Shown here piece after piece: positions 38,106-49,124 of a DNA stretch of 64,000 nucleotides (positions are counted from its first letter, which is position 1; each line of letters begins with the position of its first letter). The stretch lies in contig CAWGAA010000001.1 in the NCBI GenBank assembly GCA_963820525.1, forward strand, positions 64,001-128,000. The letters run 5' to 3'. Under the pieces are notes generated by a model, which was not told where the DNA came from, made no database searches, and saw nothing but the letters and a program-made list of their open reading frames with translations. The stretch comes from an uncultured Spirochaetota bacterium. Lineage in GTDB: Bacteria > Spirochaetota > Spirochaetia > SZUA-6 > Fen-1364. The translations under genes were made by a program, and so were the position numbers.

Positions 38106-38924
38106 ATGGGGCTCGGCTCATGGTGGAAACTCAAGCGGATGCAGGAAAGACCGCGCACGTATATTTTCCATATTTTTCGTGCCGATGGGAAATCGCTCGT
38201 TCTCCATCCCTTCCGCACCCCCGAGAAGCTGACGGCGGCCCTGGAGCAGACCGAGGTAGCCGGTAGGTACGGCGGAGATCCGCACGTGGATGAGCTGCAT
38301 CGGTTGCGAGCGGAGCTCTACGGCCTGATAGACTCCGCCGTGAAGCGACGGCTCGCCGATGTCCGCTTCATCCCGAAGTTCCTCATTTCCTCCGCCGTTT
38401 TTCTGGTTTCCTACTTTTTCTTTTCCTTTGTCGTTCAGGATCCGGTTCCCGTGGTGGATGAGCTCGTGATCTCCATCGCGCTCGCCGTGCTCGCCTATAT
38501 CATCCTGGGCAGGAGGGATGCGCGCTCGGAGGGGGCCGCTCACAGGCGCCTGGGACTCGTCGCGATCGTGGACGGCATTCTGTTCACGGAAAGCGAGTTC
38601 GTGAAGAGGGCGGAGGCCACTCTTCACGTGAACGAATCCCGTGGGATCGGCGAGATGCTGCGGGAGATCATCACCCCCTCCCTGCAGGAGCTGGGCGAGG
38701 AGGAGAGGGAAGAGGCCGTACAGTTCCTGGCGCTCCTGGAGGGAAGGTTCGATTCGCGGAGGCTCAAGCGCGAGGAGAGGCTGTTGAAGAGGCTCGCCGC
38801 AACGCCGGAGGCGCTTCCCGCCGGAGAGAAGCTCGCCAGCCGCGTGAAGCCGCGGGATTTCGATTTTCCCCTCTACGCGGTGTACAAGAGCCTCAAGCGC
38901 AGCGTCATGGACCGGAAATCTTAA
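38106..38924 (+). CDS. Hypothetical membrane protein (2 TM)
   Basis: Two hydrophobic helices flanking QDPVPVVDE. Confidence 0.72.
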   Translation: MGLGSWWKLKRMQERPRTYIFHIFRADGKSLVLHPFRTPEKLTAALEQTEVAGRYGGDPHVDELHRLRAELYGLIDSAVKRRLADVRFIPKFLISSAVFLVSYFFFSFVVQDPVPVVDELVISIALAVLAYIILGRRDARSEGAAHRRLGLVAIVDGILFTESEFVKRAEATLHVNESRGIGEMLREIITPSLQELGEEEREEAVQFLALLEGRFDSRRLKREERLLKRLAATPEALPAGEKLASRVKPRDFDFPLYAVYKSLKRSVMDRKS

Positions 38925-40044
38925 GCGCGGAGCCCGCGAGACTTTTCAGGCGATCCGCGAGGGATTCCGGCGTGGCGGATGAGAGGGGCTGGTCGTTGAT
39001 GGTCACGTTCGGTGCCTGGGAGCACAATCCCATGCACGGGACGATCTCCAGCGAAAAAAGCCCGTCTGCCGTCGTCTCGCCGGGGCAGAGCTTGAGCACG
39101 CGCGAGATGGTCTCCAGCAGCTCCGCCGACCTTTTCTTTCCGCAGTTCTCGCCCGAGCAGACCTTGATGCGGAAGCGCGCCGGCGGTTCCAGGCGGAACA
39201 CGGGATAGAACGCGATGACCTCCGAGACATGATCTGGCGATACGCCGAGAAAATCGGCGATGTGCTCGATGGCGTCCCGGGGAATATAGCCGAAGCCGGC
39301 TTGAGTCTGCTCGAGGATGGGCACGAGGAGCTCCCGCTTGGGCGGGAAACGGTTGAAGACGTCAATAAGCTCTTGGGGAGGGCTCTTGGCTACGGCGGCG
39401 CCCCGCTCCTTTTCTTCGTGCTTCTGCTTCTTCACGTAATGGGAGAGTATGGCGAGCCCCATTGCGATGTTCTCGTTTCGCACCACCACTTCGGATGGCA
39501 CGGCGAGCTGCGTCGGAGAGAAGTTCCAGATCGCCGTGATGCCCAGGGACACGACCCGGCTCGCCACCTGCTGGGCCGCCTCCTTGGGGACGCAGAGGAT
39601 CGCGATTCCCACGTCGAAGCTGCGTACCACCCGCTGGAGGGATTCCATGGGAAGGATTGTGAAAGCCCCCAGGATGCTCCCCACCTTGGCCGGATCGTTG
39701 TCGAAGACGGCCACCAGGCGCAGGCCGTATTGAGCGAGGCCGGGGTACTGGCTGAGAGCCGAGCCGAGATGGCCCGCGCCGATCAGGATGGCGGTGTTTT
39801 CATAGTTGATGCCGAGGAACTCCTCGATGGCCTTCTTCAGGCCGAGGATCGAGTAGCCCGACTTCGGCTTGCCCTTATAGCCGATGAGAGAGACGTCCTT
39901 GCGCACCTGGGTGTCGTCGATCTGGAAGAATCGCGCCAGCTGCTTCGAGGAGACGTTGGATTCGCCGCGGGCCTGCATCTCGGCGAGGATCTGGTGGTAG
40001 AGGGGGATCCTTCGAAGCGTCTGCTCGGGGATCTGGTGCTCCAT
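38905..40044 (-). CDS. rex: Redox-sensing repressor Rex fused to a NuoE/HydC-like thioredoxin-fold [2Fe-2S] domain
   Basis: IPEQTLRRIPLY, VSS..LA......QVRKD, GY, LIGAGHLG.AL, FDND..KVG, IWNFSP; then LVPILEQ.Q..FGYIP...FYP.F...C-x4-C-x35-C-x3-C..AP. Confidence 0.92.
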   Translation of the reverse strand: MEHQIPEQTLRRIPLYHQILAEMQARGESNVSSKQLARFFQIDDTQVRKDVSLIGYKGKPKSGYSILGLKKAIEEFLGINYENTAILIGAGHLGSALSQYPGLAQYGLRLVAVFDNDPAKVGSILGAFTILPMESLQRVVRSFDVGIAILCVPKEAAQQVASRVVSLGITAIWNFSPTQLAVPSEVVVRNENIAMGLAILSHYVKKQKHEEKERGAAVAKSPPQELIDVFNRFPPKRELLVPILEQTQAGFGYIPRDAIEHIADFLGVSPDHVSEVIAFYPVFRLEPPARFRIKVCSGENCGKKRSAELLETISRVLKLCPGETTADGLFSLEIVPCMGLCSQAPNVTINDQPLSSATPESLADRLKSLAGSALKISGP

Positions 40045-40078: not shown

Positions 40079-41317
40079 TTACTGGCTTCCACGGGATTCC
40101 ATCTCGCGCTGGAGGTCTATCGCCTGCTGCACCATGTCGATGCTCTCCCGTGCGGGTGTGTACTTGGGATCTAACGCCAGTACCTGCTTCCAGTATTCAA
40201 TGGCCTTTTCGTAGTGGCCCTGTGCGTATTCCTTCACGCCGGTCCGGTACAGCTCATCTGCCTGGTCCTGGGTTGCCTTCCTGCCGAAGTCTCCGAGGTC
40301 GAATTGGGCCTGCACGCTGAACTTGTCGACGGGGTTGAGCTCTCCGCTCAAGTCCAGATTGTAGTTGACGACGATGCTCATCGTGCCGAACTCCAGGGTG
40401 GTGCCCAGGGCGAGGCGGGGATTGTCCGCCTTGAGCAATATCCCGCTCTGGATGGAGAGGAAACTGGTGACATTGACGTTGGTGCCCACGGCCACATTCC
40501 ACTTCTCGGCGGGAGCGTTCACGGGATCGAAGCTGAAGGGATAGTTGAAGTCGCAGGCAAGCGTCCAGGGGCGCAGGGGGGAATAGGCGAGTCCCGCCGT
40601 GGCCATGAGGGGAAGCTGCTCTCCGGCCAGGCTGGACAGCCCGAGGTTCTTCAGCGTGGCTCCGAGACGGAAGTTGCCATCCAGGGAATGGTAGAACTTC
40701 AGAAAGGGGATGTTGAAGCTGGTCATGAGCCCCAGGTCGGTCATGAACGCCAGAGAGGACTGGTTGGCGGAGAAGACGGCGGGGATGCTCCGGTAGGCCA
40801 CCTTGAGATTTGTCCCCGCGGCCAGCCCGAAGAAATAATAGCTATGGAAGAAGTTATAGGAGATGTTCATGGTGGCGATCGATTCGGTTATATAGCCCTT
40901 CGCTCCCCGTTCGCCCCAGTCGTTGTACGCCGTGAAGGGAACATAGAGGAACTTGCCGCCGAATCCTATGCCCAGGTCATTGAAGCGGACCGTGTAGACG
41001 ACGCCTTCGAGGTTCGAGTCCGCGATCCAGTTGTGGTGGTAGAAAGCGAGCTCGGTCTGGCTCAGCAGAGAGCTGGCCGAGGGGTTGCTCTCGATGAACC
41101 CGCTGTCCAGCGCCATGGCCGTGTACGCGGTTCCCATCCCTTCGTACCTGCCGCCCATGGGGATGAGAAGGGTGGGGAAGATCGTCAGCCCGGTGTTTGG
41201 ATCGGCGAACTGGGAAAAGGCGCCCGACCAGCCCGAATACAGGTCATTATTGTCGGCCCAGACGGGGCCGCAGCCGATGAGAAGACAGAGCGCGATAAGA
41301 AACGCCTTGCCCTTCAT
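40079..41317 (-). CDS. UPF0164 family putative outer-membrane beta-barrel (FadL/PorV-like) with C-terminal TPR
   Basis: Signal peptide, DPNTG.T.FPTL.IP.GGR.EGMG.AYTA...D.....NP, alternating beta strands, TPR YRTGVKEYAQG.YEKAI.YW..VL.LDP. Confidence 0.85.
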   Translation of the reverse strand: MKGKAFLIALCLLIGCGPVWADNNDLYSGWSGAFSQFADPNTGLTIFPTLLIPMGGRYEGMGTAYTAMALDSGFIESNPSASSLLSQTELAFYHHNWIADSNLEGVVYTVRFNDLGIGFGGKFLYVPFTAYNDWGERGAKGYITESIATMNISYNFFHSYYFFGLAAGTNLKVAYRSIPAVFSANQSSLAFMTDLGLMTSFNIPFLKFYHSLDGNFRLGATLKNLGLSSLAGEQLPLMATAGLAYSPLRPWTLACDFNYPFSFDPVNAPAEKWNVAVGTNVNVTSFLSIQSGILLKADNPRLALGTTLEFGTMSIVVNYNLDLSGELNPVDKFSVQAQFDLGDFGRKATQDQADELYRTGVKEYAQGHYEKAIEYWKQVLALDPKYTPARESIDMVQQAIDLQREMESRGSQ

Positions 41318-41427
41318 ACTACGCATATTATACAACCTTTTATCGGTTTATTCCATGGTATGCGCCGGGGCGCCGGTGACCAAACTCCACTTTTCGTCGA
41401 TAATAGAAGATGTGGGAGCACGCGACC

Positions 41428-44400: not shown

Positions 44401-44463
44401 AACGCGAACTATCCGCCCCTCGTGGACCTCGTGATAAAGATCAACAGGGCGCTGGGGATATGA
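41428..44463 (+). CDS. Large secreted alpha-helical/TPR-like protein (TP0855-like)
   Basis: Signal peptide, about 1010 aa of helical repeats with TPR-like units; SD GGGAG; ATGA-coupled to the next gene. Confidence 0.8.
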   Translation: MRPLKGAITALVLCLGLIGAAPSFASGAQENRLGEARRLIQEKSYDEALLLLANIEAANPDLRDETRALIFQIMDIRRRYNAEYEKLIDVLNQMDLEKGLAIINELEALDPHPNPAMMSSIEQAKRGAENVFNAIHFRDIMDSAYKLIAQKKYAEALAAYLQPIENFNTIGFNLHRDTFLAAGYGDITVKNVLNTVGRISELAQGARAAAQDVVSAAAAAEALAGSKSVSGDEVPRFEGSLAVLQNMVDREAGLRSAVSALDTAGTAIQQKSADNRGDLYIQYMMRLNEGRKDREEGIVYAVHAIWYDAAQSLARATAADLSAAFEGAAKLLDGGQYALAVTALDDIPNRSLLAVKAASLQSAALRPQAGWRFTLQDGATLKELAGEAASFQMMAAESRAMQILARYRIELATIPPADGLSYRQLLDFRAVLKARFEAADSLRREWQAAGQSYGQQARFILSLGRLVSSAQDMADRFASFLKDLQGLDLGYAVRIAQQDSAGYPARLAMAKNLRVQASDDMEGTKNGLPTGAEIIYKYPSKALQVLDAADGYLRQLTGDIDQYQTSWKSEQPYVSTSPRVTSLLAAAAEVSKQAGQERELVAALARKAQDQHTRALEQKKLGDQSFANAVSLSKTDPERAVDLLTKAIDAYGTSLQFEEDEAIRKRIETNGEIARLQTQISLSLNTRIVTDVEQLITDGIKLISSGDYLRANQKFTQADERWKEKHPGEMYSSVLSYYLDLSRSALTVSGSREILPTDPSYDVVSSYINLANQSYLSAAALLAAGRKADAGQALANAKRNVDAVLSLFPNYRVARILALKILNRSDEKAFPVQLQAQIAQYTQEMKSGKISKREAYLGLKDIQEFRPDDRALAATLSQLEIDIGLRAKPISPEQIRESNQAYQQAVDMYRANQPETYQPALQLLDKALDANPNNENARKQRTAILLRSGSPVQGAISSTALAEYLKAKELLNSGSVAEAKVIVDRLRQDPRNANYPPLVDLVIKINRALGI

Positions 44464-47400
44464 TGGGGAGAAATACGGGACGATTCCTTCTGCTGATGCT
44501 CATCACCGCCGCCGGCGCGGCGTACACCCAGGAGCTCTATTGGGAGAACCCGGAGGTGATCATGGCCCAGGGAGTGCGCTTCTCCCAGTCGGCAACGGGG
44601 GGAGGGCTGATCGTGGTGAGCTGGCAGGAGCTCGTCACCCGGGCCAATGGCCAGGGTGACATCTTCCTGTCGCTGGCAGTTTCCAGCGACGGCCAGAACT
44701 GGACCAGGCACGAACGGTTCTACGGCCCGGTTCCCTACAGCGAGCCGGATCCCACTCTCCACCCGCCGGTCTACTCCATGATCGTGGATTCCAAAAGACG
44801 GATCTCCATGGCGGTGGCGGTCGCGGAGAGGGTCACGGCGATCATTGTCTCCGATGACGACGGAAAGAGCTTCCGCGAGGTGGCGCGGCTGGAGTCCCAG
44901 TTTCCCACTGTCACTCCCGGCATCTTCGCCTCCGCGCGAGGCGGATACCTGCTCTTCGTCACCCAATCCCGGGCAAACCCGCAGGGGGCGGGGACCGCCG
45001 GAGAATACCTCTCCATCTACTCCAGCGTCTCGCGCGACGGGGAGAGCTGGTCCGCCTTCTCCCCCTTCATCTCGGAAGAGGAGCTTCGATACAACTTCTC
45101 CCCCCAGCATTCCGCCTTCCATGGAAAGGACTTCGTCGTCTTTCAGTCCCGAAGCGAAAAGGACACCTTCCAGCTCTACCTGAAGGTCAGCTCCGACGGG
45201 GGCAGGACCTGGGGAGCTGCCCGGACGGTCACGCGCCTGCCCGTCTTTGCCGAGCCGCAGGCGGGAAAAGCGCGGGATGCGGTGGAGTACACCAATCAGA
45301 GGCCGAGCCTGTATCCCGTGGGAGCCAGCCTGGGCCTGGTGTGGGAGCGAAACCTCCCGGGCTCCCGCGCCCAGCTCTACTACTGCGAGCTTGCAGACTC
45401 GGGCGACATCGCCCTTCCCCCGCAGAAGGTCGCCTCGACACCGGAGAGCATATACGGTCAGATACTGACCTACCGGGGCGCGCTGTACGTGCTGTACTCG
45501 GACGTCTCCCTGGCCGCTTCGCGCATCACCCTCGCGCACAAGGGGGCCATCTGGGACACGCAGCTGTTGAGCAGGGGCGTCACCGGCGCCTCCAGCAATC
45601 CCCATGCCGTGACGTTCGGCGACAAGATGCTGGTGTTCTGGGAAACCATCGGCGCTACCGGTTCCTCCCTCCTGGAGGTCCGCCCTGTCACCCATGTGGA
45701 TCCGCCGAAGCTCATTGCCGTGGACTTCGTCCCGGGAAAGAGGCTGAACCGCTCCGCCGTCTCGGTGAGGTGGGACGATCCCCCCGATCCCGCCGGCATC
45801 AAGACATACCACTATACATGGAGCGTCGACGGCGTGCCGAAGGTGCAGCAGGATGTGGCGCTGTCCAGACCGTTGGTGGCGCTGCCTTCCGCGATCGACG
45901 GCGCATGGGAGCTTTCGGTCACCGCGGAGGATTTCGCGGGAAACGTCTCACCAATGGCCAAAATCGGGTACGTGCGGGATACAACCCCGCCGGAGCCCGT
46001 TGCCATCGACCCTCCGGCCACCGATGCGAACGGGTTTCTCGCATCCAATACCTTCTCCCTTTCCTGGCGGCCTCCGGCAAAAGAGGAAATCACGGGCTAC
46101 CGCTACGGGATATCCTTCATCGGGGAGATCCCCCGGGAGGCGGCCGGAGAGCTGCCGTCCGCGCCCTCTGTCGTCCAGGGAAAGGAAACGGCGGCCCCCA
46201 CGGCGTCTTTCGACGATATCGACGACGGGGCCTGGGCCTTTTCAGTCTCCGCCGTGGACTCCGCGGGAAACATCGGCAAGCCCGCCACGGTCTTGCTCAA
46301 GCTGGACAAATTCGTTCCCTACACCGCTGTATACACGGTGGCAAAAAAGACCGACGAGTTCGGCAATGTCACCCTCTCCATCAGCGGGAGAGGCTTCGAC
46401 ACCGGGGGGACGGTCGAAAAGATCTTCCTCAGCGAGGACGGCAAGCCGCCCTACGAATACGAGTTCCTCCGCTCGCGCGGCGACTTCACCGTGATGAGCG
46501 ACAGGCTGATCACGGGGCCGCGGCTGACCTCCGAGACGAAGTCGGGCAACTACGTCCTGGCGCTTTTCCATCCCGTGCGGTTGACCACGGTCTGGAAGGG
46601 CGGCCTCATCAGCTTCGAGGCCCCCGGCACCATCAAGATCGGGAACTTCAGCATCCGCTACCTGCCGGGCTGGGTGGCGGACAGGGTGCCTCTCTACACG
46701 ATCCCCGCCAGCCAGGTGGTGGTGGTGGTCGTCGTTCTGTTCATCGCCGTGCTTATCGTGCTGTCCGCCCGCAAAATGGTCGTGCTCCTGGGCGAGGGGG
46801 CGATGCTGCGCGAAGAGGTCACGGCTCTCATCGAAGGAAGGCCCTCCTCCAGGTGGGAGGAAAGGAACCGGAAAATGCATGAATTGCAGAGACGGGGAGC
46901 GGGTCTGCGCCTCAAGTACACCCTCCTCATGATCGTGCTCGTCATCCTCATCGTCCTCATCGTGTCGGTGCCTCTGAGCTTCCAGATGATCGGGCAGCAG
47001 AGGACCACCCTCGCCAACGGCCTCCGGCAGCGTTCCGAGATCCTCGTCGGGAGCCTCGCCTCCAGCGCGGAGAACCTCCTGCGTCTGGCAACGCCAGCCT
47101 ACGAGGACATGCGCCTGGTTCCGAACAACACGAGGGCCATGGCGGATGCGCTCTGGGCAACGGTCACCGGCCCGGGAGATACTGACAAGGCATTCAAGGA
47201 CTACGTGTGGGCTACAAACGACCCCCAGTGGATCAAGACCCATCCCGGCTACAACCCCGCAACGGAGAAGGCTTCCGACGACATCGGCGGCATCATCCCT
47301 GCGATCGTGGAGAGCCTCGAGGCGGACGGCCGACGCCAGATCGAGCCCCTTATCAAGGCAAACGACGCGTTCCTCCTTCGCTATAACGATCTTTCACAGA

Positions 47401-49124
47401 AGACGGACAAGAAATCCGCGGAAGATGCGCTGGCCGCCTTGAACGTGTACACCAGGGGACAGAGGGAGATCGACACCCAGTTTAAAACGAACGAGTCCTT
47501 CGCATGGGTTCACTCGAGCCCCGATTTCAGGACGGAGTCCCTCCCGCCCACCTTCGTCTTCTACAAGCCCATCGTGTACTTCAGCCGGGCCAAGGACGCC
47601 CAGGGCAAGTTCCTCAAGGACGATACGGGCAGCTATATCTACTCCTACTTCCAGGGAATGGTGCGCCTGGCGGTTTCCACCAAGCTCATCAACCTCCAGA
47701 TCCTGGAGGCACGCAACACCCTCATCCGGATCACGGGATTGATCTCGCTGCTCGCCATTGCCCTGGGAGTGCTCGGCGCGATCCTCCTGGCGAGCATCAC
47801 GGTCACTCCGATAAAGAAGCTGGCCGCAGGAGTGGCGATCATCAGGGACACGGAGGACAAGGAGGAGCTGAAGAGCCACACCATCGAGGTGCGCACGAGA
47901 GACGAGATCGGCATGCTCGCCGACACGGTGAACGACATGACCAAGGGTCTCGTGAAAGCGGCCATCGCGAACAAGGAGCTGATGGTGGGCAAGGACGTCC
48001 AGAAGATGTTCCTTCCCCTGGAGAAGGACAGCACGACGGGAGGCGAGGAGACGGCGCTCCTGGAAATCTATGGGTATTACGAGGGGCAAAAGGGGGTTTC
48101 AGGGGATTATTTCGACTTTAAGAAGCTCGACGATACACACTACGCCATCATCAAGTGCGACGTAGCAGGGCATGGAGTCCCGGCAGCCCTCATCATGGTG
48201 GAGGTCGCCACGCTGTTCATAAGCTATTTCCGCGACTGGGTGAAGAGGAAGGACGCCCTCGCCCACGTGAAGGATCCCACCGAACGCCTGAGGCTGCAAA
48301 AGGAGTTGGAGAGGGTCGACACACTGGTGTACACGATCAACGATATGATCGAGGAGCGGGGCTTCAAAGGGCGGTTCGCCGCGCTTACGATCTGCCTTTT
48401 CAACGCCGAGACGGGCGCCGCCACTGTCTGCAATGCGGGTGACCGCCTCATGCACATTTACGACGCCGACCAGCGCAAGATGGTCAATATAGAGCTCCCC
48501 GACGCTCCCGCCGCCGGTGTCTTCCCCTCGATGCTGTTCGATATGAAAAGAGGTTTCCGGCAGATCACCCAGAAGCTCGATCCTGGGGACGTGATTTTCC
48601 TGTACACCGACGGTTTCGATGAGGCAAAGCGCTTTTTCAGAAACGAAAGCTACGAGATCGTGAGCTGCGACGAGCCGGGCTTGAAGGAGGGAGAAATTCA
48701 CCTTGGGACGCACTCCAAGGGACAGAACAGTGAGGAGTTCGGCAGTCCACGAATGGAAAGCGTGATCGATGCAGTTTTCAACAGCGGCCGCTACAGCCTC
48801 GTCAGGCATCATTCGCCTACGCCGAGCGAAGAGCTCGTCTTCGACTTCTCAACCTGCCAGGGCACGGTGAAAGAGGCCGTGCTGGCTCTGGTGGCCGTGG
48901 AAAGGGTCTTCCGCGCGTATCGAGATCCCGCGGCCGATGCCAACAGCAGGATAATCGTCGATTCGAATGTGGATGCTTTCCTCAAGGACCACTTCCTCCA
49001 GTATTCCGCGTACTTTACCCACCGTCTGGATGGACAGGGGGTTGGAAGCGCGATCACGTTCACTCACCTGCACGAGGACGAGCAGTCCGACGATCTCACG
49101 ATGCTGGTGCTCAGGAAGAAGTGA
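44460..49124 (+). CDS. Membrane sensor phosphatase: BNR/sialidase-like propeller, FN3-like domains, TMs, HAMP, SpoIIE/PP2C (TP0854-like)
   Basis: Asp-box motifs SSDGQNW, SDDDGKSF, SRDGESW, SSDGGRTW; D.AGN Ig/FN3 ends; HAMP PIKKLA...DEIGMLA..VNDM; PP2C SGDYFD, DVAGHG, YTDG, DDLT. Confidence 0.9.
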   Translation: MMGRNTGRFLLLMLITAAGAAYTQELYWENPEVIMAQGVRFSQSATGGGLIVVSWQELVTRANGQGDIFLSLAVSSDGQNWTRHERFYGPVPYSEPDPTLHPPVYSMIVDSKRRISMAVAVAERVTAIIVSDDDGKSFREVARLESQFPTVTPGIFASARGGYLLFVTQSRANPQGAGTAGEYLSIYSSVSRDGESWSAFSPFISEEELRYNFSPQHSAFHGKDFVVFQSRSEKDTFQLYLKVSSDGGRTWGAARTVTRLPVFAEPQAGKARDAVEYTNQRPSLYPVGASLGLVWERNLPGSRAQLYYCELADSGDIALPPQKVASTPESIYGQILTYRGALYVLYSDVSLAASRITLAHKGAIWDTQLLSRGVTGASSNPHAVTFGDKMLVFWETIGATGSSLLEVRPVTHVDPPKLIAVDFVPGKRLNRSAVSVRWDDPPDPAGIKTYHYTWSVDGVPKVQQDVALSRPLVALPSAIDGAWELSVTAEDFAGNVSPMAKIGYVRDTTPPEPVAIDPPATDANGFLASNTFSLSWRPPAKEEITGYRYGISFIGEIPREAAGELPSAPSVVQGKETAAPTASFDDIDDGAWAFSVSAVDSAGNIGKPATVLLKLDKFVPYTAVYTVAKKTDEFGNVTLSISGRGFDTGGTVEKIFLSEDGKPPYEYEFLRSRGDFTVMSDRLITGPRLTSETKSGNYVLALFHPVRLTTVWKGGLISFEAPGTIKIGNFSIRYLPGWVADRVPLYTIPASQVVVVVVVLFIAVLIVLSARKMVVLLGEGAMLREEVTALIEGRPSSRWEERNRKMHELQRRGAGLRLKYTLLMIVLVILIVLIVSVPLSFQMIGQQRTTLANGLRQRSEILVGSLASSAENLLRLATPAYEDMRLVPNNTRAMADALWATVTGPGDTDKAFKDYVWATNDPQWIKTHPGYNPATEKASDDIGGIIPAIVESLEADGRRQIEPLIKANDAFLLRYNDLSQKTDKKSAEDALAALNVYTRGQREIDTQFKTNESFAWVHSSPDFRTESLPPTFVFYKPIVYFSRAKDAQGKFLKDDTGSYIYSYFQGMVRLAVSTKLINLQILEARNTLIRITGLISLLAIALGVLGAILLASITVTPIKKLAAGVAIIRDTEDKEELKSHTIEVRTRDEIGMLADTVNDMTKGLVKAAIANKELMVGKDVQKMFLPLEKDSTTGGEETALLEIYGYYEGQKGVSGDYFDFKKLDDTHYAIIKCDVAGHGVPAALIMVEVATLFISYFRDWVKRKDALAHVKDPTERLRLQKELERVDTLVYTINDMIEERGFKGRFAALTICLFNAETGAATVCNAGDRLMHIYDADQRKMVNIELPDAPAAGVFPSMLFDMKRGFRQITQKLDPGDVIFLYTDGFDEAKRFFRNESYEIVSCDEPGLKEGEIHLGTHSKGQNSEEFGSPRMESVIDAVFNSGRYSLVRHHSPTPSEELVFDFSTCQGTVKEAVLALVAVERVFRAYRDPAADANSRIIVDSNVDAFLKDHFLQYSAYFTHRLDGQGVGSAITFTHLHEDEQSDDLTMLVLRKK

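Follow-up and report, generated by a model that had tools for sequence, protein, structure and literature searches.

In anaerobic and fermentative bacteria, the textbook sensor of NADH/NAD+ is Rex. To our knowledge, all characterised Rex proteins are single-input proteins of about 210 residues. Here, a rex gene is described that encodes more than that. It is located in a stretch of 64,000 nucleotides (nt), termed the window in the following, from an uncultured Spirochaetota bacterium (GenBank assembly GCA_963820525.1, contig CAWGAA010000001.1, positions 64,001 to 128,000). On the minus strand of the window, positions 38905-40044 form a single open reading frame (ORF) of 379 amino acids (aa) comprising a complete Rex and, behind it, a full-length NuoE/HydC-type thioredoxin-like [2Fe-2S] domain. 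Judged by its sequence, the product is probably a working Rex repressor with an acquired and retained C-terminal putative [2Fe-2S] domain, for which HydC of a bifurcating-type hydrogenase is the likely source. It is an uncharacterised but widespread two-module Rex of wetland, sediment and soil spirochaetes. Within the full texts searched, no paper was found that describes Rex joined in one protein with NuoE/HydC or with a 2Fe-2S domain of the thioredoxin-like type, consistent with the preliminary description of the locus, which knew of no characterised example.

The Rex part was compared with the solved structures of T-Rex from T. aquaticus/T. thermophilus (1xcb, 2dt5, 3ikt) and of Rex from Thermoanaerobacter (3wg9), T. 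maritima (5zz5) and B. subtilis (2vt2). Its N-terminal 212 residues align end to end with E values between 4e-35 (1xcb, residues 4-212) and 8e-31. QVRKD of the recognition helix occupies the identical place in the fusion and in 1xcb, and the GxGxxG motif, here GAGHLG, as well as IWNF and the C-terminal helix are present. This helix matches the one that is domain-swapped in solved Rex dimers, where it lies beside the winged helix of the partner. The Rossmann residues G89, G91, G94, Y100, F114 and D115 are invariant in 34 sequences. In Pfam, Put_DNA-bind_N (PF06971) is matched with 2.1e-16 and 60.2 bits (cut-off 27) and the CoA_binding/Rossmann family PF02629 with 3.1e-15. The NCBIfam Rex equivalog NF003994 reaches 245.1 bits over residues 3-211, compared to a cut-off of 130. 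NADH-dependent release of the fusion from DNA is predicted, as for other Rex proteins. Two differences stand against this likeness. Whereas the solved proteins comprise 207-224 residues and end after the last helix, the fusion adds a 160-residue Fe-S domain. Relatives keep operators of the type TTGTGAA-N4-TTCACAA, but the only footprinted operator of this genome is a diverged box, TCGAGAATATTTTCACGA.

The added domain belongs to the HydC/NuoE/NfnC/HoxE fold family over its full length (chains compared: 9n5u_C, 8a6t_C, 6hl2_A, 2fug_2 and 7p5h_C). Among PDB sequences, residues ~220-371 match NfnC (9n5u_C), HydC (8a6t_C) and NuoE (6hl2_A) with E values of 1e-25 to 1e-27. The Pfam family 2Fe-2S_thioredx (PF01257) is matched with 2.7e-38 and 131.5 bits (cut-off 24.8) from profile position 4 to 144 of 145. 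The N-terminal helical part of the family is included, and the four cysteines are arranged in its pattern C-x4-C-x35-C-x3-C as C296-x4-C301-x35-C337-x3-C341. NuoE-family models score 100-109 bits; the NuoE, HoxE and FdsG equivalogs of NCBIfam all remain below their own cut-offs. In contrast to its described relatives, the domain is fused to Rex instead of being a separate subunit beside NuoF/HydB. Its identity to any stand-alone member reaches no more than 41%, and it forms a long-branch clade of its own.

Both modules are connected by the stop-free linker KKQKHEEKERGAAVAKSPP. An AlphaFold2 model built with 34 family sequences has a mean predicted local distance difference test (pLDDT) score of 84.9. 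Both modules are modelled confidently, with 82-95 per 10-residue block across residues 221-370 and helices at 224-279, and only residues 214-219 fall below 50. Pfam and NCBIfam matches together with the motifs bear out the earlier claim of a complete Rex plus NuoE unit in one 379-aa ORF with an uninterrupted linker. An alternative GTG start at 40092 would extend the protein to 395 aa and overlap the stop codon of the upstream gene. The AAGGAG in the linker was considered as a relic ribosome-binding site and rejected; it occurs in this genome alone among six family sequences compared.

The same two protein families are linked in rex-hydC-hydB-hydA neighbourhoods. In four loci, one each from Clostridia, Bacillota, Bacteroidota and Armatimonadota, a separate rex is located immediately upstream of hydC-hydB-hydA. 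The fusion differs from these in three respects: it lies in a UPF0164/272-aa/mazG locus, the enzyme operon keeps its own hydC, and the fused domain is strongly diverged. The Fe-S regulators SoxR, RsrR, IscR, NsrR and FNR offer a possible functional analogy only, i.e. a cluster on a DNA-binding protein as input. They are not homologous to the fusion and hold their cluster in MerR, Rrf2 or CRP scaffolds without dinucleotide sensing.

The junction is authentic by two lines of data. The linker region (39350-39440) is bridged with 0 gaps by contigs of four metagenome runs belonging to four studies on wetland and freshwater sediment; one of these runs may be the source sample of the window's assembly. 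These contigs carry no indels, which settles an earlier concern about the continuity of the linker. Among database relatives, the best 120 are 69-81% identical and have lengths of 331-411; all of them contain PF02629 and PF01257, 119 contain PF06971, too, and they are annotated simply as 'Rex'. The Rossmann plus 2Fe-2S architecture for which a search had been proposed is widespread among relatives. The objection that homologues might always have separate rex and nuoE genes fails on 116 full-length fused homologues that could be aligned.

In a set of 300 genomes spread evenly across the phylum, no genome except that of the window has a protein spanning both parts among the best 150 matches, and the best other match (E 1.7e-55) covers residues 5-216 only. 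In a survey of 60 closer relatives, the full-length fusion was detected in 15 genomes of family f1 and four genomes of family f63. In families f61, f58 and f59, which belong to the same order, Rex is closely similar (57-71% identity) but unfused, with ORFs of 216-316 aa. Five f1 copies were left out of the trees: those of G301, G317 and G324, which are frameshifted and come from low-completeness assemblies with few contigs, and two that are cut by contig ends. In the Rex-domain tree (40 rows), 19 of 19 fused proteins fall into one clade with a Shimodaira-Hasegawa-like approximate likelihood ratio test (SH-aLRT) value of 92. The unfused copy of genome G303 is nested within f1. At this locus (L134), rex ends after a linker-like tail, mazG follows directly and the Fe-S domain is gone. 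The fusion history reads as one gain and one loss.

Gene order permits a more precise statement. The arrangement with UPF0164 upstream of rex and a convergent 272-aa gene downstream is present in f61, where rex is unfused, and in f63 and this genome, where it is fused. In the remaining f1 genomes, the order is UPF0164, rex-nuoE and mazG. In none of the 32 relatives' loci are hydB or hydA found beside rex. Since the locus is identical for fused and unfused rex and lacks hydB/hydA, a ~500-nt Fe-S segment was added in place. Tree and synteny together show a single origin at the rex 3' end in the common ancestor of two families that belong to one spirochaete order, followed by one secondary loss. 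Nor is the fusion what remains of a former rex-hydCBA operon at this position. A distant Rex plus NuoE fusion, P0229 (386 aa), is 35% identical over its full length. In metagenomic sequences, a response-regulator receiver is combined with a NuoE-type domain (P0261, 292 aa, four cluster members), and P0205 has a NuoE-type domain fused to a weak AsnC-like ligand-binding domain. Because of these two proteins, attachment of the NuoE-type Fe-S module to signalling proteins can be regarded as recurrent.

The Fe-S domain has no close stand-alone relative. An exhaustive HMMER search with residues 215-379 against 1.84 billion representatives yielded 6555 matches, among them only three at E<=1e-30, all fusions or fusion fragments. 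The next matches are stand-alone proteins with 39-41% identity, and none exceeds 41%. A separate search among shorter proteins gave one match, again at 41% identity. In a NuoE tree of 39 sequences, the fused domains constitute one clade (SH-aLRT 96) on a stem of ~1.1 changes per site. This clade adjoins HydC of the Rex-box-preceded operon from the same order, by a weak join (SH-aLRT 82). Owing to this placement, the likeliest donor is that HydC lineage, followed by fast divergence. The NuoE part of P0229 falls inside the ordinary HydC clade.

Both parts of the fusion are under purifying selection. In 116 full-length fusions, C296 and C301 are conserved in 100%, C337 in 97% and C341 in 96%. Mean column identity drops from 0.94 in Rex to 0.74 in the Fe-S part and 0.65 in the linker. 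The median pairwise Nei-Gojobori ratio of nonsynonymous to synonymous changes (dN/dS; 19 coding sequences) is 0.036 for Rex, 0.31 for the linker and 0.19 for the Fe-S part; dS is saturated at ~1.1-1.4, and the ratios are therefore rough, yet clearly below 1. A PF06971 search of the window's genome (5.05 Mb, 4 contigs, 96.7% complete) had one match, the fusion gene, which is the sole Rex. The earlier suggestion that an enzyme subunit has been reused fits these data: the domain looks like an accessory module of a regulator that is inherited, lies outside hydrogenase and complex-I operons, is subject to purifying selection, has conserved ligands and is part of the only Rex of the cell.

Which genes does such a protein control? 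One study gives the consensus Rex operator as TTGTGAA-N4-TTCACAA, TTGTGAANNNNTTCACAA (PMC6391272). The f1 genomes contain 234 boxes with <=2 mismatches compared to 52 in the reversed control. A hydC orthologue (>=71% identity) is present in 22 of 24 f1 genomes. One locus at a contig start was dropped, and in 21 of the 21 loci with upstream sequence a Rex box with <=3 mismatches is located 31-102 nt upstream of hydC. Six of these boxes are perfect, nine have one mismatch, two have two and four have three, with one 3-mismatch site doubtful. The near-perfect operator at the hydC promoter of the relatives reads TTGTGAATTAGTTCACAA, and TTGACA is found <=45 nt upstream in 19 of 21 loci. These conserved boxes suggest that the fusion family keeps an ordinary Rex operator and a hydrogenase-centred regulon.

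A second site precedes the gene of a class V aminotransferase. In 16 of 19 f1 loci, TTGAGAA-N4-TTCACGA with invariant half-sites and a variable spacer is found 70-123 nt upstream of this gene. The window's genome has a one-change variant of it, the diverged box mentioned above, at C2:199334, which brings the total to 17 of 19. The box is absent in G304 and in the unfused G303, where six mismatches were counted. In f63 (3 loci) and f60 (4 loci), it is absent as well, and 2 of 4 f61 loci have a weak version. In the study mentioned above, a class V aminotransferase is named as Rex target in C. bescii, too (PMC6391272). Sequence conservation thus indicates that the genome retains at least one footprinted candidate Rex site. 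Native operators are supplied by the diverged C2:199334 box and the near-perfect hydC boxes of the relatives.

Two other elements were examined as Rex sites and rejected. The perfect palindrome ATGGCAA-N4-TTGCCAT (ATGGCAATGGTTTGCCAT, C1:1748057-1748074) directly follows an NrpR-like gene and precedes a hydC-hydB operon by 85 nt. With <=1 mismatch, it occurs in 25 of 61 relatives regardless of their Rex type (31 sites vs 13 in the control), and its context is shared only with the NrpR-like gene. It is probably the operator of another regulator. At C2:145918, a second perfect match to the relaxed family consensus falls within the first suf gene (codons 2-8). As 16 relatives do not conserve this site, it is a chance match. 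Nearby, at C2:145,950-146,000, the divergent promoter region of the suf operon and a flavodoxin-like gene contains the element TATAAnTTGACnnnnCTGACTAAnT, which is strongly conserved in 17 of 17 aligned genomes (L210-L225 included). It is a candidate operator.

The best reading of the Fe-S domain is that it provides a second input via the redox state or integrity of its own cluster; a probability of roughly 0.55 is assigned to it. As in other Rex proteins, a dimer of the fusion would occupy the operators until NADH releases it. A tether of ~10 flexible residues directly after the last Rex helix would place the Fe-S domain beside the DNA-binding/hinge region, where a second input can be added. 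Reduction or loss of the cluster would be the most likely input, in response to O2, iron or the low-potential electron pool, and repression would be set by this second signal jointly with the NADH/NAD+ ratio. The fused family, the unfused orthologues of the same order and the one secondary loss form a natural comparison set for studying how a dinucleotide sensor can be equipped with a second signal. Sensing of ferredoxin or H2 poise by the domain would, if true, explain how fermenters adjust the expression of hydrogenase to both electron carriers.

A more specific form of this reading is an unlikely one. Electron-confurcating hydrogenase consumes NADH and reduced ferredoxin together, and repression of hydCBA and fermentation genes might be lifted only when both accumulate. 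The HydC-derived cluster would in this case be reduced by the low-potential pool, either directly or via a HydB-type partner. If this were true, the fusion would be without precedent among known transcription factors in reading NADH/NAD+ and ferredoxin (or H2) poise in one polypeptide.

Several observations weigh against the best reading. With <=1 mismatch to the consensus box, 0 sites were found in this genome. Canonical TTGTGAA-N4-TTCACAA sites, which had been proposed before, are thus essentially missing here. TGTGA-N6-TCACA has 0 exact matches in this genome, and a de novo search for enriched palindromes in it returned only repeat families and no regulon motif. Seven boxes with two mismatches (3 in the reversed-sequence control) are unusable: six are intragenic, and one is located in an AT-rich, mobile-looking stretch. 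In addition, this genome gave no match at E<=1e-55 to the hydC-hydB operon, which bears the best operators of the relatives. Without near-canonical boxes and without this operon, the regulon of the genome rests on one footprinted site. Furthermore, the Fe-S domain stays under the NCBIfam nuoE_fam cut-off (TIGR01958, 108.6 vs 142.4 bits). It evolves ~5 times faster than the Rex part and has a long branch in the NuoE tree, which could reflect relaxed rather than new constraint. Finally, G303 has lost the domain and kept Rex; the domain is therefore dispensable in at least one lineage.

Among the alternatives, a role of the domain as docking module survives best, but is doubtful. According to it, the HydC-like domain binds a flavoprotein of the NuoF/HydB type, and Rex is recruited or sequestered and reads the state of an enzyme rather than that of its own cluster. 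Such a regulator would physically read its target enzyme if the partner were HydB. The helical part of NuoE contacts NuoF in solved complexes, and the whole N-terminal helical part is kept in the fusion, as seen from the full-length Pfam match and the model helices at 224-279. The nearest relatives of the domain are HydC subunits of a Rex-controlled operon in sister genomes, and the position of rex directly upstream of hydC-hydB-hydA in loci of four phyla suggests that both proteins have been associated for long. Besides the fusion, five NuoE-type matches and seven matches to Complex1_51K (PF01512) were counted in the genome, which encodes four NuoF-type proteins. The latter belong to a complex I operon, to a NiFe hydrogenase of the Hox type in which HoxE and HoxF are fused, to a HydCBA-like operon that follows the NrpR-like gene and to a fourth operon of NuoE, NuoF and a large subunit. 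However, all four NuoF-type genes are paired with their own NuoE, either stand-alone or fused, and an orphan partner for the fused domain is therefore lacking. As a dedicated partner, an orphan NuoF was rejected, since the two PF01512 matches without NuoE neighbour are RnfC-like. The fused domain is only 28-37% identical to the NuoE paralogues of the genome, which, together with the low identity to any stand-alone protein, speaks against docking. It is intact here although the cognate hydC-hydB operon of the relatives was not found. Retention of the domain without cognate hydCBA, with every NuoF having its own NuoE, argues against an obligatory HydB partner.

It is improbable that the domain is a neutral or decaying appendage, i.e. 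a captured hydC copy that is functionless or a mere tail stabilising the fold or the dimer. The faster evolution of the NuoE part and its long stem branch, the loss in one lineage that kept Rex and the score below the curated nuoE_fam cut-off would be compatible with it. Against it stand a dN/dS (~0.19) well under 1 and the conservation of all four cluster cysteines, each in 96-100% of 116 proteins. Two families whose copies of the domain differ by ~40% have both retained it, and frameshifted copies were seen only in three low-completeness assemblies with few contigs. A bifunctional protein that is still a HydC subunit of a hydrogenase and in addition a repressor is very improbable. P0229, with its NuoE part inside the operon-HydC clade, is reminiscent of such a protein, but hydB/hydA are located beside the fused gene in 0 of 19 intact fused loci (window, L027-L040 and L121-L124), relatives have a separate hydC in a Rex-controlled operon, and the enzymes of this genome each have their own NuoE. 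An assembly or sequencing artefact joining two genes is practically negligible: direct support for it was not found in these data, and at least one homopolymer frameshift elsewhere in the 4-contig genome is outweighed by the gap-free contigs of four runs from four studies and by 116 full-length fused proteins from many independent assemblies.

Table 1. Features of the rex-nuoE locus and contigs spanning the junction (window positions)
Feature	Position	Strand	Basis or remark
rex-nuoE fusion coding sequence	38905..40044	-	379 aa + stop, ATG at 40044
Rex winged-helix DNA-binding domain, residues 4-52, with QVRKD recognition helix	39889..40035	-	Pfam PF06971, T-Rex alignment
Rex Rossmann NAD(H)-binding domain, residues 82-177, with GAGHLG	39514..39801	-	Pfam PF02629
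C-terminal Rex helix, residues 193-213	39406..39468	-	AlphaFold2 helix 193-213; 1xcb alignment reaches residue 212
Charged variable linker, residues 214-228	39361..39405	-	no stop codon; low model confidence 214-219
HydC/NuoE-type thioredoxin-like putative [2Fe-2S] domain, residues 229-369, including N-terminal helical part	38938..39360	-	Pfam PF01257
First cysteine pair, C296 and C301 (C-x4-C)	39142..39159	-	codons read on DNA
Second cysteine pair, C337 and C341 (C-x3-C)	39022..39036	-	four Cys codons checked on DNA
Bridging contig X1	38800-39832		0 gaps
Bridging contig X2	38800-39840		0 gaps
Bridging contig X3	39122-39832		0 gaps
Bridging contig X5	39279-39558		0 gaps
UPF0164 + tetratricopeptide repeat (TPR) gene, upstream of rex	40079..41335	-	Pfam PF03687 3.5e-42; synteny in 29/32 relatives' loci
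Convergent 272-aa gene without Pfam family	38106..38924	+	overlaps 3' end of fusion by 20 nt

The neighbourhood of the fusion gene is summarised in Table 1. Between the stop codon of the UPF0164+TPR gene and the ATG of rex, which are encoded on the same strand, are only 34 nt, and co-transcription of both genes is therefore likely. The UPF0164 neighbour is conserved beside fused and unfused rex alike. At the other end, the overlap (38905-38924) comprises the last 20 nt of the fusion including its stop codon and the end of the convergent 272-aa gene. This gene is conserved next to rex in three families and flanks it in both f63 (fused) and f61 (unfused). Beyond it, mazG is located, and a radical-SAM gene is a further neighbour. 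The flanks of the fusion ORF in the window are free of nuoF, hydB and hydA, as had been stated before, and NuoF/HydB are absent from all 32 relatives' loci. Upstream, a 1017-aa protein without Pfam family is encoded divergently from the UPF0164-rex unit. It is followed by the gene of a 1554-aa protein (window 44460-49121, plus strand) that combines HAMP and a SpoIIE/PP2C phosphatase domain with a weak match to BNR repeats.

Two observations concern the rest of the genome. In the region of C3:776,850, a 1-nt frameshift in a run of G interrupts the NuoF-type gene that belongs to the fourth NuoE-NuoF operon. The frameshift is located within a conserved LEGDPH stretch and is either a homopolymer sequencing error or the mark of a pseudogene. 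On C1, a ~135-kb region (~685,000-820,000) contains dozens of AT-rich repeated palindromic elements in a genome with 60% GC. Here, TTTGAATTATTCAAA with identical flanks occurs 15 times, in addition to one unrelated match at C1:671997, ATTATTAATT(C/A)AATAAT 18 times and ATTCATGTATGAAT 9 times. This region has the appearance of a large array in which cassettes or mobile units are repeated.

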